The position numbers were made by a program, and so were the translations under genes. The notes beneath the pieces are model-generated. The model was not told the origin of the DNA, searched no databases, and saw nothing but the letters and a program-made list of their open reading frames with translations. Source: Saccharolobus solfataricus (GTDB lineage: Archaea > Thermoproteota > Thermoprotei_A > Sulfolobales > Sulfolobaceae). From it: a stretch of 32,000 nucleotides of DNA. The DNA lies in contig NZ_LT549890.1 in NCBI RefSeq assembly GCF_900079115.1, positions 2,160,001-2,192,000 on the forward strand, written 5' to 3'. Shown here piece by piece: positions 1,858-21,593 of the stretch; the first letter of the stretch is position 1, and each line of letters begins with the position of its first letter.

Positions 1858-2748
1858 CTAGTTTATTTTAAATAAATTTGAAGTTAGTTGCCTAGCTTTG
1901 GGTATGTTATACAGCTTATCTGGTTTCTCGTTAAGTTTTTTAGCCATTTCAAGTGATGTAACTCCGGCTAGTGCAAGTAGACTAGAAATGTTTTTCTCAT
2001 CACTATTAAAATATGGTTTTATGACTATTGAGTTTAATACATCTTCAGTAATTTTGTCGATTTCTGAGCTTTCAACGATGACTGATACTAGAGAAGGTCC
2101 ATGAACATAGCTTTCTATTTCATTATGATTTATTTCTGGTATTTCGCCATAAAACGCAGGATGCTTAGCGTTCTCATTTATCTCTTGTTTGAATCTTTTT
2201 GCGATTGCTAAGTATTTTGACGAGTAAATTACAGGTATTCTGTTTATTAGTAATTCAGCTAATCGTGTAGCATCGGCCTTTATTTGTTCTTTGGCCTCTA
2301 TTACTCCTTCTTTTAATTCCATCTCGTTTATTTTGATACCTCTTCTTTTAGTAGTCATTTTTATTAAGGGTGTGAAAAGATATGGGAAAGCGTATCTAGT
2401 CTGAAAACCCGAAGGTATCTTGATAAGTTTTAAACTCTTCTCTTTAGCTAACTTTTCAAGTATTCCACCAGATGTTATTATTATAACTTCAGATCCAGCT
2501 TTTACTGCATTTTCTACATCATTTATCGTCTCTGAAGTAGTCCCAGAATAACTTACGGCTATTAGTGACTCTTTTCCCGTGAACTTTCTCTTAAAGGATA
2601 GTTCAACCCCTAAGATGTTTGCTATTTCTCCAACGATTCCACTCCCGCCAATTCCAGAGAACACTATGTTATCGTTCTTAATTTCATGAATGGGAATTCT
2701 AAATGCTTCATCAAACATTTTATCCCAATTAAGGTAAATTTCATCCAC
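1858..2748 (-). CDS. SIS-domain sugar isomerase, crenarchaeal bifunctional phosphoglucose/phosphomannose isomerase type
   Basis: 296 aa. SIS motifs [21 protein letters not shown] and IIITSGG. Size and layout match the ~300-aa archaeal PGI/PMI family. It lies 12 nt upstream of cysS on the same strand. Confidence 0.7.
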
Positions 2749-3178
2749 CTTTTATCACCACAGATATGGACATGGACGGAGGATTTGAGGACATATTAAT
2801 AGTTATCGTATCTATACCCAGCGATTTATTGTTTTGTTTTAGTACTATGATCATTTCTGAAATCGAGAACGCTAATGAATCTATTATATTCTCTATATTT
2901 TCTGAAAGTTTACTTTTAGAGATTATGGAGAAGACAGCTGGTTGTACTAGGTAACCGAAGATTGAGTTGACTCGCTGTGATATTTGAAAAGTGTAAGAGA
3001 GCACATCGTCCCATCTCTTTTCATCGATACTTTTAGAGAAGGATTCGAACAGAGATTTGGATTTTGATAGCTGGTTTTTTAAGAATCTTAAAAGATCTAA
3101 CTCATTTATTCCTAGTTCACTTTCATTTATTTTATTTAGTTCGACCATAGTATTATCTAATCTTTCAACAGCTTTCAT
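2741..3178 (-). CDS. Hypothetical protein (predicted helical), probably co-transcribed with the isomerase and cysS
   Basis: 145-aa ORF with no motif I recognise. It overlaps the downstream isomerase gene by 8 nt, and a TATA-like box lies upstream. Confidence 0.5.
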
Positions 3179-3230: not shown

Positions 3231-4556
3231 ATGGAAAGGCTTATTATTATAGGTGGTGGAGCTGCTGGAATGACAGCCGCCTCATGGGTTAGGAGGCTTA
3301 AGCCAAACATGCATGTAACAGTGTTCGAATCCACTAAGATGGTGAGTCATGCACCTTGTGGTATTCCCTATTTTACTGAAGGTCTCTTCGATGACGAAAA
3401 CCTATTCATGACCTACACTCCAGAATATTTTATTGAAAAGAGAAAGATAAATGTTAAGACAAATTCTAAAGTGGAAGAGGTAGATTTAAGGTCGAGAATT
3501 GTCGTGGTAAGAGAAAATCAAGAGAAAAGGAAATACGAATTCGACTATCTATTATTTTCCACAGGTGCTAGACCTAAGAAGATAAATGCAGAGGGAGATA
3601 GAATTTTCTATGTTCATCATCCTGCAGAAGCCTCTTATATAAGGCAAAAATTATGGAGTTTTAATAGGATTGCAATAATTGGTGGGGGTATATTAGGCAT
3701 AGAAATGGCTGAAGCATTAAGAGCTAGAGGAAAGAAAATAGTTTTGATTCATAGAGGGAGATATTTGCTCAATAAAATGCTAGATGAAGATATGGGTAAG
3801 ATCGTAACAGATAAGGTTGAAAGCGAAATAGAGCTAAAGTTGAATGAGAGTCTCGTAAGTGTAATAGAGGAAGGAAGAGTCGTAATAACAGATAAAGGAA
3901 AATATGATGTAGACGCCACTGTAGTTGCTATTGGAGTTGAGCCAAATATTGATCTAGTTAAAGATCAATTAAAAATAGGGCAGACTGGTGCCATATGGGC
4001 TGATAACCATATGAGAACTAGTGTCGAAAATGTTTATGCAGCTGGGGATTCTACAGAATCGATAAATATCATTACTAAAAAACCCGATTGGGTTCCTTTT
4101 GCACCAGTTGCGAATAAAATGGGTTTCGTCGCTGGAAATAACATAGGTGGTAAAGACGTGACTTTCCCTGGGGTAGTAGGAACAATGATAACTAAATTTG
4201 AAGAATTTATAATTGGTAAAACTGGTGTTACTGAGAACGAGGCTAAACGATATAACATTAAAACAGTTTCAGCAATAGTTCATCATAAGACTAGGGCTAG
4301 ATACTACCCTGGATCTAAAGACATTATAGTGAAGTTAATAGCTGAGGCTGACACTATGCGAATAATCGGCGCTCAGATTGTAGGAGAAGAAGAGGTTCTA
4401 GGAAGGCTAAACATGATGGCTGCTGTTATCCAAAAAGGTTTTACGGCAGAAGATCTATTCTTCGTAGAAACTGGGTATGTTCCACCCGTAAATAGGGTAT
4501 GGGACGTGGTTACTTTAGCAGCGAGAAAATTATTTTCCGGTATTAGTGGAGAATAG
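3231..4556 (+). CDS. FAD-dependent pyridine nucleotide-disulfide oxidoreductase (NADH oxidase / CoA-disulfide reductase family)
   Basis: 441 aa. N-terminal FAD fold IIGGGAAGMTAA, single redox cysteine motif SHAPCGIPYF, second Rossmann fold IIGGGILGIEMAE, and AAGD near the C-terminal part. Confidence 0.85.
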   Translation: MERLIIIGGGAAGMTAASWVRRLKPNMHVTVFESTKMVSHAPCGIPYFTEGLFDDENLFMTYTPEYFIEKRKINVKTNSKVEEVDLRSRIVVVRENQEKRKYEFDYLLFSTGARPKKINAEGDRIFYVHHPAEASYIRQKLWSFNRIAIIGGGILGIEMAEALRARGKKIVLIHRGRYLLNKMLDEDMGKIVTDKVESEIELKLNESLVSVIEEGRVVITDKGKYDVDATVVAIGVEPNIDLVKDQLKIGQTGAIWADNHMRTSVENVYAAGDSTESINIITKKPDWVPFAPVANKMGFVAGNNIGGKDVTFPGVVGTMITKFEEFIIGKTGVTENEAKRYNIKTVSAIVHHKTRARYYPGSKDIIVKLIAEADTMRIIGAQIVGEEEVLGRLNMMAAVIQKGFTAEDLFFVETGYVPPVNRVWDVVTLAARKLFSGISGE

Positions 4557-4630
4557 ATCTAGGTTTTATGAATGTTCTTTCAGTATTACCTCATATTTAA
4601 ATATTACTATAATAAAATATGATATGAAAG

Positions 4631-5752
4631 ATGCCTAAAAAGTTAGAGCTTCAAGTATTACTAAAGGACATAATCTCAAAGTATATTGTGAATTATTTAA
4701 GTTCCTCCAGTAATATAAGTCCTAATATCGAGAATCTAGTAGGAGAGGACGATAATAGGGGGATTTTGATTTCTCCTTTAAATGAATTTATCAGAACTGT
4801 AAGCTTCGAGAAACATAGCCAATCTTTGATTTATTCCTTAGACGGCAGTAGTAGAAGTTTTATCTCGTCTAAAGGTATTGTTAGTCTTGCATCTGTAGTA
4901 GTATCATCAACCATTTCTCCTATTTTAGGCGTCTATCCTCCCATTTCAGGTTTTCCAGAACTAGATCTGAAAAAGCCCTTTTTAGCTTTGGCCTCTTCAG
5001 CTCATCAGAGCCCCCTAATCCCTTTCTTTTATAGCTCCGAATATGTTACAACTTTATCTTTAGATGGTTCTTTCTTTACTTCAGTGAATTCTCCAGAGGA
5101 GATAGAAACTGAAATAAGAACAATACTTGAAACTGAAGCTCTTAAAAAAATACCAAATGATGGTTCTATTATATTAGATGGCCCCTTAATACCTCCGTTG
5201 ATTTTCTTAAGAAGTAAGCCTAGAGATGATATATTAAGTTTACGATTACAAGCCATCAAGGGGAGAAACGTAATTGGTATTGTTAAGAGGTTAGACAAAA
5301 GCCGATTATTAATCTCTAGCCTTTATAAATTATCCTCTAAATTTATGGAAAAATTTAGGGTTGATCCTAGTAGATATTTTAGTGATGAATCGTTTATACT
5401 TGATTTGCTCAAAGCTAATTTATCTCCTCCTTATTCTCCTATATCTTTAGGTCCCATATTAAGAAATATAGGTAACACGCCAGTCTATGTTAACTATTTG
5501 ATTTATCCTCTTCATCCCTACGTTTTCAAATTTGCCATATTGAGAGTAGAGAGTCTTAATAACGATTCCGGAGTAGTAGACCAGATATCTTCCTTAAAGT
5601 TTACTAAAGACGGTATTCCATTTATCCTTGCAATTGCTGATAGAACTGCAAAGGAGATAACAAATGCCATATTAAAGATTATTATGACCTCATTGGAGAG
5701 CATGGGGGTGCAAGCTAGTTTTTACAGTAAACTTGAGCAGGTGAGAATTTGA
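4631..5752 (+). CDS. NurA-like nuclease (paralogue outside a herA-mre11-rad50-nurA context)
   Basis: 373 aa. NurA-type acidic motifs LIYSLDGSS (Asp71, nt 4841-4843) and SIILDGPLIPP. The stop overlaps the start of the downstream HerA-like gene (TTGA). Confidence 0.65.
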   Translation: MPKKLELQVLLKDIISKYIVNYLSSSSNISPNIENLVGEDDNRGILISPLNEFIRTVSFEKHSQSLIYSLDGSSRSFISSKGIVSLASVVVSSTISPILGVYPPISGFPELDLKKPFLALASSAHQSPLIPFFYSSEYVTTLSLDGSFFTSVNSPEEIETEIRTILETEALKKIPNDGSIILDGPLIPPLIFLRSKPRDDILSLRLQAIKGRNVIGIVKRLDKSRLLISSLYKLSSKFMEKFRVDPSRYFSDESFILDLLKANLSPPYSPISLGPILRNIGNTPVYVNYLIYPLHPYVFKFAILRVESLNNDSGVVDQISSLKFTKDGIPFILAIADRTAKEITNAILKIIMTSLESMGVQASFYSKLEQVRI

Positions 5753-7578
5753 GCTCAGATGTTCCGTTATATAATGATATAAAGGATAGGATATCTAGGG
5801 CAAGAGCATTAGCCTTAACGTTGGGTGATTTGGTAGGAAAGGTTTCTAGATATATTCCTAACAAACTTGATGAGGAAAATAATGTCGTAAACGTAACTGT
5901 AGATCCGAATACTTACTATAAATATCCCTTTCTGGGTAAGATAGGTATCTTTTTGGGTGCTATAGATATAAAGACATTATATTTTGTTTTACTGAGAGTT
6001 ATAGGTTATGAAAGAAATGACGCATCATCTCTCTTTATGGGAGATTCTAATGTATTAAATAATATAGGATTAAGTGATGATGAACCGGGATCATTAATAA
6101 CTAATGTTACCCTAAGATGTGAAATGTTAACTAAGGTAGACTTTCTTTCCTCTTCTGAACCCGATGGTGCAGACATTATATTAGAGCCGCAATCACCGGT
6201 GATAATCCCTAAGGCGGAAGTTATAGAGAGATCTCTAGGTACTACTAGAGGATTATTAAGATTAGGTTTTTTAGATGTTGCATATAGTAAAGTTAGAGTA
6301 AGTACAAGCCTTGATGATCTGAATTTCCATATGCTAATATTAGGGACTACTGGAGCAGGTAAAACTTCATTTATAAAAGACTTAATAGCTGGTCTTAATG
6401 TAACTAATGAGGAAGGTAGTAAGATCTTTATCCTTGATGCTACCGGTGATTATTATCATATTTTCCTGCCTCCAGATAAATCCGATAAGGTAGTTATGAA
6501 AGGCGTAGAGGAATTTACTCAATTGTATGGGGCAATAGTTAAGGGCATCAATGTAGATATCATCTATCCTATCAGCAAATCCTGGGTAAAAAAGTATTTA
6601 GATGGTGCCAAATCTGCTGGGTCTATAACTAAAATGTACTTCGATATGTTTGTAAAACCAATACTTAACCATTTAAATAATAAGGGTATTTCCATTTACG
6701 CTTCCATAATAAATAATAAGATTATTATTTCCAATGCAGATTGGTCATCTCAAGTTACAGTTTATCCATTTTATTTTAGATTTAAAGATGTAAAGACAAT
6801 TTTACATAAGCTTAATCCTTATTTTACTGAGCAGGCGTCACATTTTATAAAAATAATGATAAGAAAAAAGGGTAAAGATATAGCAAATCTAGACGATTTG
6901 ATAGATCAATTTAATGAGAATAGTTTAGAAGGTGTCGAAATTCATAAAAGCACAAGAGAAAATATCGTTAGAGGCTTGTATTTGCTAAAGGAGACCCAAC
7001 TTTTCGATGTCGGTGTAGAGAGGTTTCCATTAGGTAAGATTCTTAAAGATTCTTCTTCATCTACACTAATTTTTGATCTATACAATAGTGAGCTTGATGA
7101 TTTCTCTCAGAAAATTTTAACATATTATTTCCTAGACCGCTTATTTGAATTTAGGGAGAGGCAAATGCGTAGTGGAAATGTGAAAGGAAGAAATGTGATA
7201 ATTATTGATGAGGCGCATAGGTTCTTTCCATCATCTAAAGGAGGTGAAGAGGATACCAACTATATTAGAAGGGTTGCGGGTAAAATAGCTACCATGATGA
7301 GATTGGGTAGGAGGAGGAAGATTGGTTTTGTGTTTGCCACTCATAATCCTAATGACTTAAGTGATATAATTATACAGTTAGCAAATACTAAGATTATATT
7401 TAGAATTAAGTCAGAAGTTGCTGAAGCTTTAGGTCTGTCTAAGACTGAGGCTAAGATATTAAACTGGGAGAGAAATGGTGTAGCCTATTTGCTGACACCT
7501 TGGCTTAGAGAAGGTAAAATTAAGATAAAAGCTCCGGTGCCTCCTCCATTAGGTCATTACGATTTGTCTAAAACATAA
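5749..7578 (+). CDS. HerA/FtsK-superfamily ATPase (HerA-like, DUF87 type)
   Basis: 609 aa. Walker A ILGTTGAGKTS (nt 6343-), Walker B VIIIDEAHRF (nt 7198-), and the HerA-like C-terminal FVFATHNPNDL...KIIFRI. The TTG start overlaps the NurA-like stop by 4 nt. Confidence 0.8.
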   Translation: MSSDVPLYNDIKDRISRARALALTLGDLVGKVSRYIPNKLDEENNVVNVTVDPNTYYKYPFLGKIGIFLGAIDIKTLYFVLLRVIGYERNDASSLFMGDSNVLNNIGLSDDEPGSLITNVTLRCEMLTKVDFLSSSEPDGADIILEPQSPVIIPKAEVIERSLGTTRGLLRLGFLDVAYSKVRVSTSLDDLNFHMLILGTTGAGKTSFIKDLIAGLNVTNEEGSKIFILDATGDYYHIFLPPDKSDKVVMKGVEEFTQLYGAIVKGINVDIIYPISKSWVKKYLDGAKSAGSITKMYFDMFVKPILNHLNNKGISIYASIINNKIIISNADWSSQVTVYPFYFRFKDVKTILHKLNPYFTEQASHFIKIMIRKKGKDIANLDDLIDQFNENSLEGVEIHKSTRENIVRGLYLLKETQLFDVGVERFPLGKILKDSSSSTLIFDLYNSELDDFSQKILTYYFLDRLFEFRERQMRSGNVKGRNVIIIDEAHRFFPSSKGGEEDTNYIRRVAGKIATMMRLGRRRKIGFVFATHNPNDLSDIIIQLANTKIIFRIKSEVAEALGLSKTEAKILNWERNGVAYLLTPWLREGKIKIKAPVPPPLGHYDLSKT

Positions 7579-7602
7579 ATACTATTGTACTAATTTAGAC
7601 TA

Positions 7603-7992
7603 GTGGAGTCTAACTTAGGAAATGTTATAAATACATTAAAGAGAAAGAAAGATAAGGAAGTTGTTATAGAGTTTTTGAAAACTATTAGGAAATACTTGCC
7701 ACCCTCAGACGACTTTTCCATAACATTATGGAAATCGGGAATTTACGAGTATATTCTAGATAGGAATGGTATAGCAATTATGAGAATAGCTGAAGACGAG
7801 TATCTGCCATATATGACAGCATATGAGAAAAGAATGGATTACTCACAACTTCCCGATAATCTTGTAAATAACCTTGATTGGAAAGGAATTTTAAGGCAAC
7901 TAAGGGATATTGCCTTGGAGTACGCAAAAAGAGATAAAAGTTTTGACAAGATAGCTGATATGGTTAATAATGTCATACTTGAAAATCTCTGA
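7603..7992 (+). CDS. Hypothetical protein, 129 aa
   Basis: ORF with a GTG start 24 nt after the HerA-like stop. It overlaps the next gene by 23 nt. I recognise no motif. Confidence 0.45.
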   Translation: MESNLGNVINTLKRKKDKEVVIEFLKTIRKYLPPSDDFSITLWKSGIYEYILDRNGIAIMRIAEDEYLPYMTAYEKRMDYSQLPDNLVNNLDWKGILRQLRDIALEYAKRDKSFDKIADMVNNVILENL

Positions 7993-8926
7993 TACTATTG
8001 TTGAAACATTTAGATTTATCCATTATGAACAGTCTAATTTTTTAAATAGGCTACATGGAGGTGATATGCTATTCTTCCTAGTGGAGACTGGTATGATATC
8101 TGCTTCAAAAGTTGCCATGGGTACTACGCTCTTAGCCTCGTTAGACGATGTTGTATTTAAGAAACCAGTTAGATTAGGTGATATAGTTAAAGTAAGGGCT
8201 AAGACGGTGTATATAGGTAATACATCCTTGGAAGTTGAAGTTAGAGCGTTTGTTAGAGATGAAGAAGTAGTTTCAGCTTATGCTACGTATGTTAAAGTTG
8301 ATGATCTATTAAGGCCCACTCCAGTTAACGTGAAGATTATGGCAGAGAGTGAAGATGATAAGAGGAAAATAGATGAGGCAAAGAAGAGAAGAGAAAATAG
8401 ATTATCTAAAATAGTAAATAGACAGAAGATGAGATTTTATGTTGATGATATTACTGATGGATTAAGATATAGGATAAGTAATGTGATTCATGTATCTCCC
8501 GAGCTGACATATGATGGAAGAATAATGTCTGCTGGTAAATTACTGAAACTTATGGATGATCTTGGAGGAATAATCTGCTTACGCTATTTAGATCATAACA
8601 GTAGTAATCTTTATGACAATTCTTTTAACGCCGTAGTTACAGTAGCAGTTAAGGGACTAGCATTTTACTCTCCAATAAGGCTTAATGATATAATCCTAAT
8701 TAGAGCCGGACTGGTTTATGTAGGTAATACCTCTGCTGATATTTTAATAAACGTGGTTAGGGAAGATCTGAACGGTGCAAAGGAACATGTAGCTACTGCG
8801 TACTTTACATATGTTAGAGTGGATAAGGATGGTAAACCTATAAAAATACCAGAATATACGCCCGTTACAGAAAGAGAAAAAAGGCTTTATGAGGAGGCAC
8901 TAACTCGTCGAGGTCTGCGTAAATAG
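7970..8926 (+). CDS. Acyl-CoA thioesterase with tandem hotdog domains
   Basis: 318 aa. Two repeats of the acyl-CoA hydrolase hotdog pattern (NRLHGGDMLFFLVETG...GNTSLEVEV and GKLLKLMDDLGG...GNTSADILI), separated by a charged linker. Confidence 0.75.
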   Translation: MSYLKISDTIVETFRFIHYEQSNFLNRLHGGDMLFFLVETGMISASKVAMGTTLLASLDDVVFKKPVRLGDIVKVRAKTVYIGNTSLEVEVRAFVRDEEVVSAYATYVKVDDLLRPTPVNVKIMAESEDDKRKIDEAKKRRENRLSKIVNRQKMRFYVDDITDGLRYRISNVIHVSPELTYDGRIMSAGKLLKLMDDLGGIICLRYLDHNSSNLYDNSFNAVVTVAVKGLAFYSPIRLNDIILIRAGLVYVGNTSADILINVVREDLNGAKEHVATAYFTYVRVDKDGKPIKIPEYTPVTEREKRLYEEALTRRGLRK

Positions 8927-13448: not shown

Positions 13449-14987
13449 ATGGAAAGAAAGCAAGTATTTGTTAGGGAAACTTCTGGTCTTATAAAGCACG
13501 TGTCCCTTACAGATGCAGTTATGCTCAATATAGCTAATATGTCAATAGGTATAGCACTATTTCAATCTATATCACCTTACATAACGCGAGGAGGAGTACT
13601 ATGGATAGCGTCATTAATAGGACTGTTCTTAGCTTTACCTCAAGCATTAGTTTATACAATATTCAATAGAAAGATTGGTAGAACTGGTGGAGATTATGTT
13701 TGGATTTCAAGGAATTTGGATGGGGCAATTGGTACTATTTTCGCAGTAGCATATCTCTTGGAGTCCACAGCGTTTTATGCTATTATCTCATTCTTCTCAG
13801 CATCATCAGTCAATTCTGTCTTACTGACTATTGGTTATCTTAATCATCAAAATTCGTTAATTTACATTGCAGAAAATGTAATCGTCAATCCTTATGCTAC
13901 TCCAACATTTCAACAAAGACTAATATTTTACGGAATCTCAGCGTTTGCTTTTGCAATAATAGTACTTATAAATATTCTACATTCTAAATGGGGATATAAG
14001 TTAGTGACAGGTTTAGGAATGTTCTCAATGCTTACCGTAATACTAGCTATGATAGTAATGGCGATCAACGCTAAGCGTTTTGATTCCTTAGTCTTGCCTT
14101 TACTGAAAGACTTTAATGTGACCGTATCTTCAAATCTACCTAAAACGATTTTACCCTATTCAATATCAATTCCAGCTACACTCTTTCTTTTACCATTATT
14201 TGCTCTTTATACGTATCCTTGGATGAATGCCGGTCCTGCTGTATCTTCAGAGTATAGGGGAGATCGCGTATCAAAACTCAATGTGTTTCTCTCACTCCTA
14301 ATTACCGGAATTTTCGTAACAATAGGATTCTTAGAGATGGATCTTATTGCTGGGTATTACTTTAATCTAAACGCCTTTCCATCCGCAATTTACAACTTCT
14401 GGACAGTAGCTATGGCGTTATCCTTAAATCCGATAATAGAATGGATATTGGGGCTGGGGCTGATAATGTGGAATTACTACGTCTTATCATATGGCGTTTT
14501 AGTATTTTCAAGATACGTATTTGCCTTATCATTTGATAGAGTGTTCCCAGAGAAATTCTCACAACTGAACGCAAATGGATCGCCAGTTTACGCTCACGTT
14601 TTCGATTTGACCTTAACGTTATTATTCCTCTTAATTCCAGTATTTTCAATAGATGCGGCTGTATCATTGTATGGCGCTTCAATAGTTGGGATGCTATATT
14701 TCTTAGCAGTGGGTATTTCAGCAATCATATTCGGACGAAAAATCAGAAGCGGGCTGATGAAGATTGCGGGGATTTTAATGACAGTCTATTTCGTGTATCT
14801 GACCTATGAAGCTGCAAGAAATCCTCTATTTGGTTTTTCAACAACATCTGGCGTAAACGTTACAACTTTATCATTTGTTCTAGGTTCTTTTATTGCAGGT
14901 ATAGTAATATGGAATATCACAAGGTATGTGAATTCAAAGAAAGGAATAGATCTATCTTTAACTTTTAAGGAGATCCCCCCAGAGTAA
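13449..14987 (+). CDS. APC-superfamily amino acid/polyamine permease
   Basis: 512 aa, about 12-13 TM segments. The N-terminal REtSGLIKhVSltDAvmLNIanM pattern is typical of APC permeases. A TTTTATTAAT box lies about 28 nt upstream of the ATG. Confidence 0.8.
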   Translation: MERKQVFVRETSGLIKHVSLTDAVMLNIANMSIGIALFQSISPYITRGGVLWIASLIGLFLALPQALVYTIFNRKIGRTGGDYVWISRNLDGAIGTIFAVAYLLESTAFYAIISFFSASSVNSVLLTIGYLNHQNSLIYIAENVIVNPYATPTFQQRLIFYGISAFAFAIIVLINILHSKWGYKLVTGLGMFSMLTVILAMIVMAINAKRFDSLVLPLLKDFNVTVSSNLPKTILPYSISIPATLFLLPLFALYTYPWMNAGPAVSSEYRGDRVSKLNVFLSLLITGIFVTIGFLEMDLIAGYYFNLNAFPSAIYNFWTVAMALSLNPIIEWILGLGLIMWNYYVLSYGVLVFSRYVFALSFDRVFPEKFSQLNANGSPVYAHVFDLTLTLLFLLIPVFSIDAAVSLYGASIVGMLYFLAVGISAIIFGRKIRSGLMKIAGILMTVYFVYLTYEAARNPLFGFSTTSGVNVTTLSFVLGSFIAGIVIWNITRYVNSKKGIDLSLTFKEIPPE

Positions 14988-15464
14988 GTCGAAGATCCTT
15001 TCAGCAAATTTTATCAATTTCTCAGTGTCCTTTTCATTAAGCTCTAAGGGTATTGAATATCCTAATCTAATTTTAATGTCATCTAACAAGCTTATGATAT
15101 CCCTCTCCTTAATTCTAATTTCGGCAATTCTATCATCATTTGAGTATCTTGATATTACTCTAAAAAGCCCATCAAAATCAAGGTACCAAGGTATGTCGGC
15201 CCCTATTCTTATTAATGTTGCATTCAATAGTAAGTATAGGGACTCTACGGCAGCTATTGCCGCGATTTCATAAAAACCAGAATTAAAATTGAATTTTGAG
15301 GCACGTAAAAGTTCATTAGCCCTTTGGAATAATGGTTCTAAGTTCACAATTCTAATGATAAAATTACTCTTTTTAATTTTCTTTACACTCACTAGTGCTT
15401 TCAGAAAGTTTATAGCTTTAGGCAAAGGATATACCACTAGATCATAGTCTAAGAACTTTTCCAA
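14958..15464 (-). CDS. Hypothetical protein with a HEPN-like helical core; start uncertain
   Basis: 168 aa with only a TTG start and no internal Met. The segment ANELLRASKFNFNSGFYEIAAIAAVESLYLLLNATLIRIG fits the HEPN helix-pair pattern, but I see no RX4-6H motif. There is no adjacent nucleotidyltransferase partner. Confidence 0.35.
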   Translation of the reverse strand: MEKFLDYDLVVYPLPKAINFLKALVSVKKIKKSNFIIRIVNLEPLFQRANELLRASKFNFNSGFYEIAAIAAVESLYLLLNATLIRIGADIPWYLDFDGLFRVISRYSNDDRIAEIRIKERDIISLLDDIKIRLGYSIPLELNEKDTEKLIKFAERIFDLLWGDLLKS

Positions 15465-16072: not shown

Positions 16073-16756
16073 CTAGAATTTAGGAAATATTACCATCATT
16101 GTGAGATCACTGAAGTCATTTTTCTCATTCATTAACGATACTAAGTTATCATAGACTCTTCTTTTTTCATCATCGTAACTAAGTTTCTCAAAGACAACTA
16201 TCCTACAGTTTAAGTTATTATCATAAAGGAATTTAGCTACCTTTTGTGGCCCATCTTTATGAGGTTCTGGTATTACTATAGCCACACGGCCCATCCTCAA
16301 TATGTTAAGAATATCATTCAGAAATTTCGATATATCTCCCCTTACATGTAGCGTTACAAAGCCGATAAAATTTATGTCAAGACCTAATCTAGAAAGTGCA
16401 ATATTTAGGGAGGATACTCCAGAGATTATATTTACCTTAACACCTTTACTTGCAGCAATGTTCTTTATTTTTTCCACGAATTGCCAGTCGGATACTGAAG
16501 GATCCCCATGATCAAGTATTGCCACATTTTCAGTTTTCCCGATTTCAATAACCTCTTCTAGCGTTTCACTCTCATTTTTATAGGTTAATACTACTGTTCT
16601 TTTACCTTCCAATATTGGTGAAAATCTTTCTAAGACTGATTTCCATCCAGCTACTACTACACTATCCCTTATTGCCTTATATCCCTTTAATGTAAGATAT
16701 TCCGGGTCTCCAGGACCTACCCCGACAATGTAAACTGTAATTTTACTCACCCTCAT
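16073..16756 (-). CDS. cbiE: Cobalt-precorrin-7 (C5)-methyltransferase
   Basis: 227 aa. Tetrapyrrole methylase N-terminus VGVGPGDPEYLTLKG with GDPSV. It is the last gene of the overlapping cbi operon. Confidence 0.8.
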   Translation of the reverse strand: MRVSKITVYIVGVGPGDPEYLTLKGYKAIRDSVVVAGWKSVLERFSPILEGKRTVVLTYKNESETLEEVIEIGKTENVAILDHGDPSVSDWQFVEKIKNIAASKGVKVNIISGVSSLNIALSRLGLDINFIGFVTLHVRGDISKFLNDILNILRMGRVAIVIPEPHKDGPQKVAKFLYDNNLNCRIVVFEKLSYDDEKRRVYDNLVSLMNEKNDFSDLTMMVIFPKF

Positions 16757-17756
16757 AAGTTGCTACTGCAATAGTAGAATTCCTACTTATAGCTATTTTT
16801 CTCAATATTAATTTTGAATTTCTTCCACCAGCTATTAATGCGGAAATTTCAGCAACCCCTTTCAAACCAACTTCGATTAGGGTTTTACTTGGAGGTGTAA
16901 GACAAGGATTCATAAAGTTGTTTATCTCTTCCTCATTTACTAATCTAAATCTAACATTAAATTCGTCAGCGATTTTCTTAACCTCTTCTCGAATAGACGC
17001 AATTATCCCAATCCTTTCTCTTTTAAGGTTGAGCCTTTCTAAAACCTTGTATATTCCATCTCTTATCTCTTCCATTTTTACATCTTTTTTAGAGCCTATC
17101 CCTATCGATATCTTCAGCGGCTTTAGCCATACTACGATCTTATCCTTATACTCTTTATCACCTCTTAACGATATAATGTAACTACATTCCTCACTATTTA
17201 CCTTTATATTTTCAGGGAAATTAACGTTAACATCGATACCATCTATACAAATACTCTCATCTCTTAATAGGGCTGCATTTATCTTTACAATATTTTCAGG
17301 ATTTATTATTTTAGCTATTAGGATATTGGCTATTCTCTCGATACTTAACTTGCCTTTTATCTCAGCAGCTGTAGTTATTATTGGTGTAGAGTTTAAAATT
17401 ACAGATAATTCTCTTGCAATATCATTGGCACCCCAATGACCACCTAGAAGGGGTATAACGTAGTTTATCTTATCGTCTATGCATACTATTGCAGGATCCT
17501 CAGTCTTAGACTTCGCATATTTGCAAACAATCCTCGTAGCTCCTTCTAGGGCCATTACAAATACGATTGCATCATAACATTTCCATATTGTTTCAATTTC
17601 TGCATCTTTATACCTGTAATGGACTACGGGTATTTCGAAACTTTTCAACTTCTCCTTAATAGTTTCGCCTGCGCTAAAAGCGTCTTCAGAGGCAGATATT
17701 ATGCAAATTCCTCGCCATAAGTTTTCTATCATTGTTAGTCTTCCTCCACTTTCCAA
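16743..17756 (-). CDS. cbiG: Cobalt-precorrin-5A hydrolase
   Basis: 337 aa. CbiG-like layout with a central GGHWGAND segment and a C-terminal ISIGIGSKKD...IASI module. It overlaps cbiF by 22 nt and cbiE by 14 nt. Confidence 0.8.
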   Translation of the reverse strand: MESGGRLTMIENLWRGICIISASEDAFSAGETIKEKLKSFEIPVVHYRYKDAEIETIWKCYDAIVFVMALEGATRIVCKYAKSKTEDPAIVCIDDKINYVIPLLGGHWGANDIARELSVILNSTPIITTAAEIKGKLSIERIANILIAKIINPENIVKINAALLRDESICIDGIDVNVNFPENIKVNSEECSYIISLRGDKEYKDKIVVWLKPLKISIGIGSKKDVKMEEIRDGIYKVLERLNLKRERIGIIASIREEVKKIADEFNVRFRLVNEEEINNFMNPCLTPPSKTLIEVGLKGVAEISALIAGGRNSKLILRKIAISRNSTIAVATYEGE

Positions 17757-18523
17757 GGCCTATACGAGTGATTATGTTTGGGATCGTATACACTAGATCT
17801 TACCATATTCTTGATCTGTTGGGGATCTGCTGAAAGTCCTACTATTATTACTGAATCCCTATATATCTTAGCTTCTCTAACCTTACTTACGATATCAGCC
17901 AAAGTTCCTTTGATTATCTTTTGCTCCGGCCAAGTAGCACGATAGACCACTATTACTGGAGTATCGTCAGTCAATCCTCCCTCCTTTAGATCATTAACAA
18001 CTCTGTCAATGATATGTATTCCAGTATATATTACCATAGTAGCTCCAATCTTTACCATTTTGGCGAAATCCTTTATGGAACCTTGCATTGGGACTCTTAG
18101 TGAAGCCCTTGTTATAATGACAGTTTGGGAAAGCTTAGGGACTGTTAACTCAATCGGTATTACAGAAGCTGCGGCAATAGCTGCAGTGATACCCGGTATA
18201 ACTTCAAATGGAATCCCCGCAGCCTCCAATGCCCACATCTCTTCAAATAATGCTCCGTATATTGATGAATCTCCAGATTTGAGCCTAGCAACCAGTTTTC
18301 CTTCACTTGCCTTCTTCACCATTATTTCCACTATCTCATTTAAAGTAAGTGATGAACTATTGTATACTTCAGCGTCCTTACGAGACCACTTTAATATTTC
18401 TGGATTTACAAGGGAACCCGCATAGACTATTACGTCAGCTGTTTCTATATACTTCTTCGCTTTTATCGTAATTAGCTCTGGATCTCCTGGACCAGACCCT
18501 ATGAAAACCACTTTTCCTATCAT
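17735..18523 (-). CDS. cbiF: Cobalt-precorrin-4 C11-methyltransferase
   Basis: 262 aa. VFIGSGPGDPELITIKA, VIVYAGSLVNPE and RLKSGDSSIYGA match the CbiF/CobM pattern. Confidence 0.85.
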   Translation of the reverse strand: MIGKVVFIGSGPGDPELITIKAKKYIETADVIVYAGSLVNPEILKWSRKDAEVYNSSSLTLNEIVEIMVKKASEGKLVARLKSGDSSIYGALFEEMWALEAAGIPFEVIPGITAAIAAASVIPIELTVPKLSQTVIITRASLRVPMQGSIKDFAKMVKIGATMVIYTGIHIIDRVVNDLKEGGLTDDTPVIVVYRATWPEQKIIKGTLADIVSKVREAKIYRDSVIIVGLSADPQQIKNMVRSSVYDPKHNHSYRPWKVEED

Positions 18524-18529
18524 TTATAA

Positions 18530-19198
18530 TCACCTTTTCTTTCTCAAAGCTATTATCATCGAAAAGTAATCCTTATCATTAATAATCTCCCTTTCCATAT
18601 TAACTAATTTTTCATCACTCATGAAACATCTTCTAGCATAAATTAAGTCGTATTTTTTGGAAAGTATGTCAGCTATTTCCTTAATGTTCTCATTAGCCTT
18701 AAGTACTATTATAGTCTCAAACACTTCGCTAGCTTTGGCAATAGTGTCCAGTCTTGAAGCTGGTATTATACTTATAGAATCCTCAGAATTCGCTAAAGAT
18801 ATCATGGCTTTTGAAGCACAAGCTGTTATGGAAGAAACGCCTGGGACTATTTCCACGTCAATACTACACGGTAATTTATTCTTTATTCTGAAAAAGGTGC
18901 TATATAATGTTGGATCGCCTAATGTGACGAACGCAGAATCGCCTTCACTTTCACTACAGATCTTCTCTCCTAGCTTTTTTAACTCATTCTCACTAACGTC
19001 CTTTGCCATAGGGAAACCTAATAGGACTAGCTTTGAATTGTTGTCAGCGTATTTCTTAACTATGTTCTCCGCTAAACTTCTATTGGTTCCAGTAGAATAA
19101 GGGATGAAAATAGTTCTAACCTCCTTAAGAATTTTCGCTCCTCTTAAAGTTATTAACTCGTCATCTCCTGGTCCTAAACCAACCACGTAAAGTTTCAT
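18530..19198 (-). CDS. cbiL: Cobalt-factor II (precorrin-2) C20-methyltransferase
   Basis: 222 aa. VVGLGPGDDELITLRGAKIL and TLGDPTLYSTF. The position and size fit CbiL/CobI. Confidence 0.8.
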   Translation of the reverse strand: MKLYVVGLGPGDDELITLRGAKILKEVRTIFIPYSTGTNRSLAENIVKKYADNNSKLVLLGFPMAKDVSENELKKLGEKICSESEGDSAFVTLGDPTLYSTFFRIKNKLPCSIDVEIVPGVSSITACASKAMISLANSEDSISIIPASRLDTIAKASEVFETIIVLKANENIKEIADILSKKYDLIYARRCFMSDEKLVNMEREIINDKDYFSMIIALRKKR

Positions 19199-19794
19199 GG
19201 CTTTTCACCAGAAATTATAAATATCGGATTTCTCGCCATCATTGCGGTGCCCACTTTGGTTTTCATACCTTTTGCGATTATCACCTCGGTTATTTCTAAA
19301 TTCACGAATCCAATTTTTTCCATCGCTGATAAGGCATTATTCACAGTTTCCAATAGTATAGCATCAATAACTATTCTTCCACCCTTATTTATTATTTCCC
19401 AAGAGGCTGATATTATTTCCTTAATTTTTTCCGATCCGCCTCCAATGAAAATCCTATCAAATTTCTCATTAATCGTGGACAATATCGCTGGTGCCTCACC
19501 CTTAATGAGCACTATATTGTTTAAAACTCCAAACTTTTCAGCATTTCTTCTTGTCAAGTTAATAGCCTTTTCCTCCTTATCTATACCGTAAACTCTACCA
19601 CTGTTTCCAACCAATAATGAAGCCTCTACAGTAATGCTACCTGTACCACATCCAATATCTAATACCTTATCACCTTTTTTTATCCTTAATTTGGATAAAG
19701 CCAAAGCCCTTATCTCCTCTTTAGTCATTGGTATTTCTTCATCTCTTTCAAAGAGGTTATCTGGAATTCCAGGTATAACGTAATTCCATTCCAT
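19195..19794 (-). CDS. cbiT: Cobalt-precorrin-6B C15-methyltransferase (decarboxylating)
   Basis: 199 aa. IPMTKEEIRALALSKL followed by the class I SAM motif VLDIGCGTGSITVEA. Confidence 0.85.
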   Translation of the reverse strand: MEWNYVIPGIPDNLFERDEEIPMTKEEIRALALSKLRIKKGDKVLDIGCGTGSITVEASLLVGNSGRVYGIDKEEKAINLTRRNAEKFGVLNNIVLIKGEAPAILSTINEKFDRIFIGGGSEKIKEIISASWEIINKGGRIVIDAILLETVNNALSAMEKIGFVNLEITEVIIAKGMKTKVGTAMMARNPIFIISGEKP

Positions 19795-20844
19795 TTAACA
19801 TCCCACCCTACTCAAAGACTCACCGTCATAATCGAAGATAATTACGCAGAAGTTTATATTGTCATTAAAACTTTTTATCCTACTCAATATTTTCTCCGCT
19901 ACAATGTTCATAACTTTTCTCCTTTGTTCTTTTGTCATATACGTAAAAGCTTCCTCAACTGACAAAGCATTTGATATTTTAGTTAGAGTACCGTAAGGAA
20001 GTCCTGCTAAAACTGAGGCATGAGTTAGCGATTCCAGTCTAGCATCACCTTGTGAATAATGAGTATTAAAAATCCCCGCATACACTTTAAGAAGCTTTGC
20101 AGGCAATCCAGCCAATATTACCTTCTTAAAAAGATTACTCGCTAACTTTATTGAATCCCCTATCCTATCTCCTACTTTTATGATACAGTTACTATCAAAT
20201 AGCTCTGCTGCATACTTCGCAGCAGAATTCCCAGGCGCAATTACTACATAGTCGTAAGACTGCCTAATTACGTTAAGCTCACATCTAATGTGTTCTAAGT
20301 AATCATCATCACTAACTGGTGTCTCAATACCAGTCGTACCGAGTATGGAAATCCCACCGACTATTCCGACCATTTTGTTTAATGTCTTTTCAGCAATGGT
20401 CTCTCCATTTGGCACTTCGATCGTTATTTGTATTCCCTTATCTGTAACTTCCCTTATTGCGTTGATTATCATTTCTCTTACAGTAGGACTTATTGCCATC
20501 TCACCCATAGTTGCTTTTAACCCACTTCTAGTAACTTTACCAACTCCCCTTTCTCCAATTATTACAATTTCATTATTCTCATTCAATTTAGCACAGCACC
20601 TTATTACTAATCCATCTAATATATCCGGATTATCTCCGGAAAATTTCTTAACCTCAGCGCACGATATTTCACTATCTATCTCAACTTTTTCCACGGGAAT
20701 TTCCAGTCTCAATCCTATGGGTGTTGGTATTACTACTGTACTTCTTTTCTCCTTATTAAGTAGACCTATAACTGCTGCCTTTGCGGCTGCAGAGGCTGCC
20801 GCTCCAGTGGTTATTCCAAATCTCTTCAAAGAGTTTATTATCAT
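19795..20844 (-). CDS. cbiD: Cobalt-precorrin-5B C1-methyltransferase
   Basis: 349 aa. N-terminal [15 protein letters not shown] signature of CbiD. Confidence 0.85.
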
Positions 20845-21593
20845 AGCTCATATTTCCTCTCGTAACCTCTTGGTGTTATCATGTAATTTTTATATCTATA
20901 TGTCAATGAGTTTCCTATTATCATTGTAGTACTCATACTTATTTCATTCATATATTCTTTCCATGACGATAAAGTCGTAATTATTATGTTCTCATTATTC
21001 CTATACGCGCTCTTGACTAGTCCCACTGGGGTATTTGGCTTTCTATGTTTTGAAATTATATCCATAACCTCTATTAGTAAATTCTCATTAATTAAATTAT
21101 AAAATACTATTACAAAGTCAGCTTCAGCAGCCTTAGTTACTTTATGTAAAATCTCCTCTCGTGGGATTAGTAAATCGCTTAAGCTTATTACTACAAAGTC
21201 AAGAGAAAGGGGACTTCCTAATCTCGCAGCGGCTGCTAATGCAGCAGTTACACCTGGTACCACTTCGACGTCTAAATCTAAATTTCTCCTTGCAATCAAG
21301 TCGTAAACTAAACCCGCCATTCCGTAGACCTGGGGGTCACCACTAGATACTAAGGCTACTGTATTATTGGACTCTAAGGCCTTTTCTATTGCAGTATTTG
21401 CCCTAAATATTTCCTCTTTCATTCTAGCCCCTATTACTTCCTTTTTGCCATCTAGGACATCCGATATTAACCTTAAGTATGTATTATATCCAATTATTAC
21501 ATTGGACTTTTCCAGAACTTCTTGCGCCTTAATTGTCCTTTGTTCTTTTGATCCTGGTCCGATTCCAACAATATATAACCTCCCCATTTTCAT
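20841..21593 (-). CDS. cbiH: Cobalt-factor III / precorrin-3B C17-methyltransferase
   Basis: 250 aa. [24 protein letters not shown] and [15 protein letters not shown] match CbiH/CobJ. Confidence 0.85.

Follow-up and report, generated by a model that had tools for sequence, protein, structure and literature searches.

The canonical archaeal HerA–NurA pair is encoded together with mre11 and rad50, and in the transposon insertion sequencing (Tn-seq) gene table of S. islandicus M.16.4 the genes of this set (nurA-rad50-mre11-herA, M164_0062-0065) carry 0-1 insertions and are classed as essential (PMC6249222). The residues critical for the nuclease are D58, E116, D133 and K202 in Sulfolobus NurA, and D51, E105 and D126 in P. 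furiosus NurA, the latter together with H411, a fourth ligand that is Asp in Argonaute. Besides the canonical set, multiple vertically inherited nurA-herA paralog pairs, one of them CRISPR-linked, have been described in Crenarchaeota since 2012. Here, we analyzed a NurA-like nuclease gene and a HerA-like ATPase gene, followed by a gene for a small protein, in a 32-kb stretch of Saccharolobus solfataricus DNA (the window, on whose forward strand all coordinates are counted). The locus is no discovery in itself, as it is already catalogued in arCOG families, ortholog tables, Tn-seq and promoter-binding studies. We consider it fairly likely, albeit far from certain, that it encodes a paralogous, core-genome NurA–HerA machine devoted to auxiliary DNA-end processing.

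The three genes follow a 74-nt promoter/intergenic region (4557..4630, + strand) and are all read from the same strand. The first one (4631..5752) encodes the NurA-like nuclease, of 373 aa (arCOG00287), ortholog of SSO2284, SiRe_0094, Saci_0148 and M164_0095, and also of ST2248 and Msed_2081 according to the Tn-seq table (PMC6249222). The second (5749..7578, TTG start) encodes the HerA-like ATPase, a hexameric-translocase-type protein of 609 aa (arCOG00284), whose orthologs are SSO2285, SiRe_0095, Saci_0147 and M164_0096, with ST2249 and Msed_2082 in the same table. The third (7603..7992, GTG start) encodes a small conserved protein of 129 aa (arCOG05897; SSO2286, SiRe_0096, Saci_0146 and M164_0097). 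At the junction between the first two genes, which reads ...GGTGAGAATTTGAGC, the start codon TTG and the stop codon TGA are both contained in one 4-nt TTGA, with a GGTGA Shine-Dalgarno-like motif immediately 5' of the TTG; a gap of 24 nt separates the HerA-like stop from the start of the 129-aa open reading frame (ORF). An original prediction made on this DNA had given these coordinates, overlap and gap exactly, and the translational coupling that it proposed is supported by the TTGA overlap. Its observation that neither mre11 nor rad50 lies nearby holds for the whole window, where no mre11, rad50 or cas genes were found.

The NurA-like protein matches the Pfam NurA model PF09376 over positions 2-253/254 (E=9.1e-20; 71.6 bits vs. 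a cut-off of 21), and it carries the motifs DGS (71-73) and DGPL (183-186). Across 25 NurA-like sequences, D71, R163, E167, D183-G-P, V218-K219-R220, D252, R305, E307 and D337 are invariant. Mapping through 2YGK and hhalign makes D71, E167, D183 and K219 the counterparts of the canonical D58, E116, D133 and K202. The bridge for this mapping was a canonical-type NurA encoded beside a HAS-barrel HerA in a Desulfurococcaceae locus (L009), which aligns to 2YGK with E=3e-14 and displays the motifs DGGS, ExLE, mDG, isKvS and AHxD. The window residues D71, R163/E167 and D183 fall on DGGS, ExLE and mDG in a local hhalign alignment (E 6.7e-4, probability 27%), global hhalign not returning this mapping, and the correspondence of K219 is given by motif pattern only (canonical K202 in "isKvS" vs. 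"VKR" in the window), as is that of D337 (invariant A-D337 vs. canonical A-H). The NurA-like protein's active site appears to be intact, since the critical residues map onto invariant counterparts.

The HerA-like protein matches the central DUF87/HerA domain (PF01935, E=2.9e-14) and contains a Walker A motif (GTTGAGKT, 199-206) and a Walker B motif (IIIDEAH, 484-490), both invariant in 40 homologs. Its architecture comprises an N-terminal helix, a beta-barrel-like domain (~26-175), Walker A, a helical/beta insertion and Walker B, and an RLGRRRK motif is found at 518-524. The AlphaFold2 model (predicted local distance difference test 86.7, predicted template modelling score 0.85) gave essentially full-length Foldseek alignments (~650 columns, probability 1.00) to 9x1m, 7wrx, 4d2i and 7f6d. 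The best E-value (2e-23) was to 9x1m, the HerA of the T. kodakarensis HerA–NurA complex; template modelling (TM) scores to D. radiodurans HerA (7wrx/7wrw) reached 0.62-0.66, and matches also included S. solfataricus HerA (4d2i) and the defence HerAs 8wld, 9c1n and 8zit, all the matched HerA structures being at 12-16% identity. The modelled protein thus has the overall fold of a HerA subunit, and this extends to the N-terminal barrel, the domain in contact with NurA. Scores against the NCBIfam equivalogs for canonical HerA are far under the cut-offs (45.6 bits vs. 970 for NF040819; 36.3 vs. 800 for NF040937), which marks the protein as a paralog rather than canonical HerA. In a rough neighbour-joining tree, the window-type HerAs form one clade with a CRISPR-linked Caldivirga HerA and a third type (loci L018 and L025), apart from HAS-barrel canonical HerAs and Aquificales HerAs.

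Most of what the original prediction had said about the two proteins stands. The positions of DGS, DGPL and both Walker motifs were right; the NurA-type identity is confirmed by the PF09376 profile and the conserved catalytic residues, the four counterparts of which were all found on alignment; and the HerA-type identity by the DUF87 profile and the full-length structural matches. The description of the ATPase as an enlarged HerA must be abandoned, since T. kodakarensis, D. radiodurans and defence HerAs measure 560-620 aa, S. solfataricus HerA (500 aa) being a short member of the clade. Likewise, the spacing between Walker A and Walker B is ordinary for characterized HerAs, with ~283 residues in the HerA-like protein vs. 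~290 counted in 9c1m.

The distribution of the pair points to a core-genome module. The exact NurA-like and HerA-like proteins are present in public Saccharolobus genomes, and the 90%-identity clusters of both include S. islandicus REY15A ADX84189 and ADX84190. In S. islandicus M.16.4, 1119-nt and 1830-nt genes overlap by 4 nt, and are followed 24 nt downstream by a 390-nt gene and then by a thioesterase gene with a 23-nt overlap; orthologs of the pair occur in 9/9 genomes of the same table, including S. acidocaldarius and S. tokodaii (PMC6249222). HerA-like orthologs with 55-93% identity were found in Saccharolobus, Sulfolobus, Sulfurisphaera, Stygiolobus, Acidianus, Metallosphaera, Sulfuracidifex and others, and relatives with 26-34% identity in Desulfurococcales, Acidilobales and other Thermoproteota. 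A block syntenic with the window, in the order NUDIX, CysRS, PGI, the 145-aa hypothetical protein, CoA-disulfide-reductase-like, NurA-like, HerA-like, small ORF, thioesterase and MFS-like, was recovered in Acidianus, Metallosphaera and a Sulfolobaceae metagenome-assembled genome (MAG). Iterated hidden Markov model (HMM) searches and inspection of the fetched loci placed the NurA-like gene directly 5' of the HerA-like gene in every locus having upstream DNA, the two genes overlapping or abutting in 20 of 25 loci. Among 104 neighbour proteins of 22 non-Sulfolobales loci, the recurrent families were metabolic or housekeeping. No mre11/rad50 beside the pair and no CRISPR arrays were found in the related loci, and no relatives of the pair were detected on plasmids or viruses (PLSDB, INPHARED phage/virus genomes and IMG/VR contigs). 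Because of the fixed synteny, the housekeeping neighbours and the lack of plasmid or virus copies, the pair bears the marks of a vertically inherited core module and not of a defence island. The proposal of a defence or plasmid/virus-restriction module, in the sense of a variable island, is not supported, as 20+ loci have metabolic flanks and no mobile copies were found.

Several related arrangements were noticed during these searches. In two Desulfurococcaceae loci (L009:10049-13691 and L013:1468-5153) the window-type pair is directly followed, on its own strand, by a canonical-type set comprising a canonical-type NurA (2YGK, E=3e-14), a HAS-barrel/DUF87 HerA and an ORF of ~290 aa, so that two NurA–HerA machines are encoded in tandem. 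Two Sulfolobaceae loci (L018:7962-10962 and L025:6479-9482) have HerA followed by NurA, overlapping in L025 and convergent in L018, and S. islandicus M164_0014-0017 comprises a NurA-like protein (arCOG07312), a 1012-aa uncharacterized ATPase (arCOG07313) and a HerA (arCOG00280); all these further Sulfolobaceae sets are non-essential. The HerA-like genes of a "Thermoplasmata archaeon" bin (L004) and an ENA metagenome contig (L033) are near-identical in the tree and have common downstream neighbours, and the Thermoplasmata label is probably a binning error rather than an occurrence of the family outside Thermoproteota.

Tn-seq data help to separate the role of this pair from that of the canonical one, which occupies a separate locus (M164_0062-0065 / SiRe_0061-0064). 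M164_0095 and M164_0096 received 9 and 21 insertions, respectively, and both were called non-essential, whereas the small ORF M164_0097 received 2 and was left "unassigned" (PMC6249222). Universal conservation in a fixed housekeeping context, together with essentiality, had been named beforehand as grounds for doubting the original prediction; the conserved housekeeping context was indeed found, but the genes are not essential. The pair could be regarded as a redundant backup for canonical end resection in homologous recombination, as it belongs to the same families, keeps the catalytic residues and is annotated by arCOG and RefSeq as repair nuclease/helicase. Nevertheless, canonical nurA and herA are individually essential though the pair is present, which implies that it cannot replace them; with the HerA-like protein only ~14% identical to canonical HerA and far under the NCBIfam cut-offs, and with no mre11/rad50 linkage, we regard a backup function as very improbable. 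A pair that is dispensable for growth, yet unable to replace its essential canonical counterpart, argues for an auxiliary role.

A single strongly conserved promoter drives both coupled genes. It contains an AGTATTA box (4582-4588) with the palindromic core GTATTAC (4583-4589), followed by an invariant TATA/BRE-like element, ATATTTAAATATT, at 4593-4605. The ATG of the NurA-like gene lies ~30 nt 3' of this element, implying that the operon mRNA is probably leaderless. The GTA(T/A)TAC box and the 13-nt core recur when the promoter is aligned with those of Acidianus, Metallosphaera and the Sulfolobaceae MAG. In the literature, AGTATTA (the ccr-2/aCcr1 box) is the sequence bound by aCcr1, a ribbon-helix-helix repressor of the cell cycle, and by its viral homologs. 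Since the window holds hardly more copies of the 7-mer than expected (15 vs. 13.6), with no enrichment, the case for an aCcr1 box rests on its positional conservation and on published binding. A near-copy of the box (ATATTAC, 4601-4607) overlaps the TATA region and a second exact AGTATTA (4654-4660) lies 24 nt inside the NurA-like ORF; the core promoter is hence bracketed by up to three aCcr1-box-like elements, recalling the two-box cdvA promoter, although only the upstream box is clearly kept in other genera.

According to a 2026 preprint, aCcr1 occupies the saci_0148 promoter and saci_0148 is strongly repressed, being among the genes most strongly repressed on aCcr1 overexpression, with cdvA, segAB and ESCRT-III-2. 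HerA proteins are members of a superfamily of ATPases that act as pumps, FtsK-HerA. Together with the conserved box, these features evoke a cell-cycle-linked machine, an FtsK-like DNA pump and nuclease that would clear or resolve DNA around segregation or division and would be expressed before aCcr1 turns off the division-phase regulon. However, the S. acidocaldarius gene was scored as non-cyclic in synchronized cultures, and the genes are called non-essential, tolerate many insertions and have no growth defect on record, which leaves this function improbable.

Work on the virus SIRV2 counts SiL_0094-SiL_0095 among the operons that contain the box and are lowered upon expression of the viral protein gp21, a rudiviral aCcr1 homolog, and gp21 bound the sil_0095 promoter fragment in an electrophoretic mobility shift assay (EMSA). 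SIRV2 has a linear double-stranded DNA (dsDNA) genome, and such repression is what would be expected from a virus facing a nuclease that restricts it, so that the pair might be conceived as a dedicated antiviral or anti-plasmid restriction module, in which a HerA-like hexamer and its nuclease attack invading linear DNA as in the SIR2-HerA and DUF4297-HerA systems. The fold does resemble those of the defence HerAs, and both proteins have PADLOC matches: the HerA-like protein to HerA "Type III coevolved" (PDLC01055, E=5.7e-46) and the NurA-like protein to NurA "Type III coevolved" (PDLC01056, E=5.7e-12). These matches are at the protein level only, with no system call; the resemblance to repair HerAs such as that of D. 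radiodurans is equal or higher; and the gp21 effect can be explained as a hijack of the host aCcr1 regulon (cdvA, segAB, ESCRT-III). Given also the order-wide presence, the vertical inheritance and the fixed housekeeping synteny, with no defence-island neighbours and no copies on mobile elements, a dedicated restriction module seems about as improbable as the cell-cycle function.

A further link comes from CRISPR regulation. Liu et al. 2017 named SiRe_0094-0095 a nurA-herA operon and found in EMSA that Csa3a binds the SiRe_0094 promoter specifically, and the authors proposed a model in which the pair, induced by Csa3a along with the adaptation genes and acting like RecBCD, would degrade DNA that is linear or foreign, either from its ends or where forks have stalled, and supply prespacers to Cas1-Cas2-Cas4-Csa1. 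Several of our observations agree with such a CRISPR-adaptation helper. Indeed, the "Type III coevolved" models are CRISPR models and the best-scoring ones for both proteins, and the promoter region contains two 12/18 matches to the Csa3a consensus, at 4530(-) and 4606(+), both of them weak and at most suggestive. In addition, the Thermoproteales have a conserved nurA-csm6-herA CRISPR cluster, and the PADLOC scan returned a divergent Caldivirga pair, the only cas-linked locus, with a Cmr1/Cmr6 fusion on one side and a CARF protein on the other. On closer view, one flank of this Caldivirga pair is a 690-aa apparent Cmr1–Cmr6 fusion (L011:80-2152; N-terminal Cmr1 and C-terminal Cmr6 PADLOC matches) and the other a CARF7-type protein (L011:5096-5872). 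Nevertheless, neither the window nor 20+ related loci contain linked cas genes or arrays, Csa3a induced the pair no more than marginally in vivo, in a study that points to the canonical operon just as much, and the Csa3a site is reported to be missing from S. acidocaldarius leaders, where the pair is conserved nonetheless. The helper function is therefore unlikely, although less so than the alternatives discussed above. Slightly less likely still is its bolder version, in which the pair, with the 129-aa protein as third subunit or regulator, would destroy linear foreign DNA in the manner of RecBCD from a fixed place on the chromosome and would also feed CRISPR adaptation, and for that reason would be activated by Csa3a and repressed by the rudiviral gp21. 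If true, the housekeeping genes would conceal an innate immunity factor that belongs to the core genome.

Auxiliary DNA-end processing thus heads the ranking of roles, followed by CRISPR-adaptation helper, antiviral nuclease, cell-cycle function and homologous-recombination backup. The invariant NurA residues and Walker motifs, and the match of the HerA-like model to HerA–NurA structures, make a Mre11/Rad50-independent, ATP-driven DNA-end processing complex the most likely product of the locus. By homology, the HerA-like protein would form a ring-shaped, ATP-driven dsDNA translocase, onto which the NurA-like protein, a putative metal-dependent nuclease of the RNase-H/PIWI fold, would dock as a dimer. 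DNA ends would reach the motor by way of the nuclease and would be resected or degraded, the whole process dispensing with Mre11–Rad50. We infer that the pair is used in particular cell-cycle or stress/invader situations and not as a stand-alone mobile defence; a part in the handling of foreign DNA is possible in view of the promoter links to Csa3a and gp21.

Several results weigh against this reading. Complex formation and the nuclease and translocase activities are deduced from homology. The Pfam HAS-barrel model PF09378 gives no match to the N-terminal domain of the HerA-like protein, which is hence recognized at the fold level only; comparison of the NurA-like protein with the PDB by phmmer and profile search yielded no NurA match, and the bridging hhalign alignment is weak. 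Regarding regulation, EMSA revealed no binding of the host S. islandicus aCcr1 to the sil_0095 fragment, in contrast to viral gp21; an older synchronized-culture microarray classed the S. acidocaldarius ortholog as non-cyclic; and Csa3a changed the protein in vivo by no more than 1.21-fold, in one strain. Furthermore, no published phenotype for the pair was found in the literature, whose reports cover regulatory links only.

The pair nevertheless deserves attention. It is kept in a fixed place in Sulfolobales, and also by Desulfurococcales and Acidilobales relatives, yet the cell can lose it, and its promoter is targeted by three regulators: a CRISPR-associated activator, the cell-cycle repressor and its viral mimic. 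Knowledge of its role would clarify how crenarchaea split DNA-end processing between essential recombination and further tasks, for example the treatment of invader DNA, spacer supply or cell-cycle events, and would also give a function to arCOG05897.

The 129-aa arCOG05897 protein had been called an orphan, which does not hold, as its gene is kept beside the pair across Sulfolobales, directly 3' of the HerA-like gene in all Sulfolobales loci fetched (L001-L003). No Pfam, NCBIfam or PADLOC match was obtained. An exhaustive HMMER search of 1.84 billion representatives collected only 13 clusters at 50% identity and detected no relatives outside Sulfolobales, and the family HMM failed to detect the 142-186-aa ORFs located 3' of the pair in Acidilobales loci. 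The AlphaFold2 model (predicted local distance difference test 82, predicted template modelling score 0.76) displays a predicted alpha2-beta4-alpha3 fold with no significant match in PDB or BFVD. Its best, non-significant BFVD match is A7WKK5 (E 0.089, TM ~0.36), an uncharacterized protein of an Acidianus filamentous virus (Betalipothrixvirus), a Sulfolobales virus; the match is probably due to chance. Judged by its conserved adjacency, the likeliest role of the 129-aa protein is that of an accessory factor, specific to Sulfolobales, of the putative NurA-like/HerA-like complex, which makes it a candidate subunit or regulator.

The next gene (7970..8926, +) encodes a tandem 4HBT acyl-CoA thioesterase (two Pfam 4HBT domains). 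It overlaps the 129-aa ORF by 23 nt, the same overlap as in S. islandicus M164_0098, and follows the small ORF in L001 and L002 but is missing from L003, where the 129-aa gene is retained. The thioesterase gene is probably co-transcribed with the module, but in function it stands outside it. The remaining neighbours in the window encode CysRS, PGI, CoA-disulfide-reductase-like, MFS-like, SDR and ExoIII-like proteins, a protein kinase, a cbi cluster, an IS110 transposase and arlHIJ-like products. Two genes 5' of the pair, and divergent from the CoA-disulfide-reductase-like gene, 2741-3178 (-) encodes a 145-aa hypothetical protein with no Pfam domain (arCOG05898; SSO2282/Saci_0150); the published ortholog table shows the same placement, as do the loci of Acidianus and Metallosphaera. 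The sole toxin- or defence-flavoured gene near the pair, 7 kb off, encodes a 168-aa HEPN-domain protein (14958-15464, -; E 2e-15) with no obvious adjoining nucleotidyltransferase partner. Farther away lie an eight-gene cobalamin (cbi) cluster (16073-22588, -), with a CbiX/CbiC fusion, CbiD, CbiG, several precorrin methylases and a methyltransferase, and an arlH/arlI/arlJ-like archaellum motor set (28346-31999, -) consisting of a KaiC-like ATPase, a T2SSE ATPase and a T2SSF membrane protein. An IS110-family transposase (26574-27524, +; DEDD_Tnp_IS110 and Transposase_20), ~19 kb from the pair and unassociated with it, sits in a segment (26001-28000) with G+C raised to 0.41-0.44 vs. ~0.34 elsewhere, and overlapping antisense ORFs of 117 aa are found near it, at 27553-27938. 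The window contains no CRISPR array, tRNA or Rfam element, and no tRNA, Rfam, tandem-repeat or CRISPR features marking a mobile island were seen.

Comparison with known systems places the pair among HerA-based machines. The CedB/CedD proteins (HerA/VirB4 clade), involved in DNA import in Sulfolobales, are HerA-clade ATPases of the same organisms, and the HerA-like protein gives a weak match to CedD. Membership in CedD was rejected, because the NCBIfam score is 46 bits vs. a cut-off of 600, and the protein has neither a transmembrane domain nor a ced context; in contrast to the Ced ATPases, it also has no VirB4-like N-terminal domain, and it has a nuclease partner. The anti-phage systems SIR2–HerA, DUF4297–HerA and TdpAB likewise combine a HerA-fold hexameric ATPase with an adjacent effector (Foldseek E ~1e-20), but their effectors are SIR2, DUF4297 or TdpA instead of NurA, and they reside in variable defence islands, whereas the locus in the window has a fixed core position off mobile elements. 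CRISPR-linked nurA-herA pairs are closer: the PADLOC models that score best for both window proteins derive from them, the Caldivirga HerA falls into the window-type clade of the neighbour-joining tree and not with canonical HerA, and both kinds are vertically inherited paralog pairs. Nevertheless, the window pair and its 20+ relatives have no nearby cas, csm6/CARF or CRISPR array, the transcriptional tie to CRISPR consisting of Csa3a binding in vitro.

The stand-alone NurA–HerA of D. radiodurans (7F6D/7WRW/7WRX) is likewise a two-gene unit outside any mre11-rad50 operon, with a HerA of similar size (~580-620 aa) and the highest TM score to the model (0.62-0.66; 0.71 on target length). It differs in its low identity (12-13%), in belonging to another domain of life, in its reported role in end resection of double-strand breaks, and in having no 129-aa partner. 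Finally, the canonical archaeal HerA–NurA complexes (S. solfataricus SSO2251/SSO2248, 4D2I/2YGK; T. kodakarensis 9X1L/9X1M) belong to the same two families, share with the window pair the NurA D/E/D/K residues, the HerA Walker A and B motifs and the full-length HerA fold, and presumably also the assembly of a nuclease dimer on a translocase hexamer. The window pair departs from them in the divergence of its HerA-like protein, with an N-terminal domain unseen by the HAS-barrel model, in its gene order (nurA then herA with a 4-nt overlap vs. herA-mre11-rad50-nurA), in being non-essential and free of mre11/rad50, and in its extra conserved 129-aa gene. A second DNA-end processing machine, which the original prediction had offered as an alternative, is thus the best reading of the locus, as a paralogue of the canonical pair.

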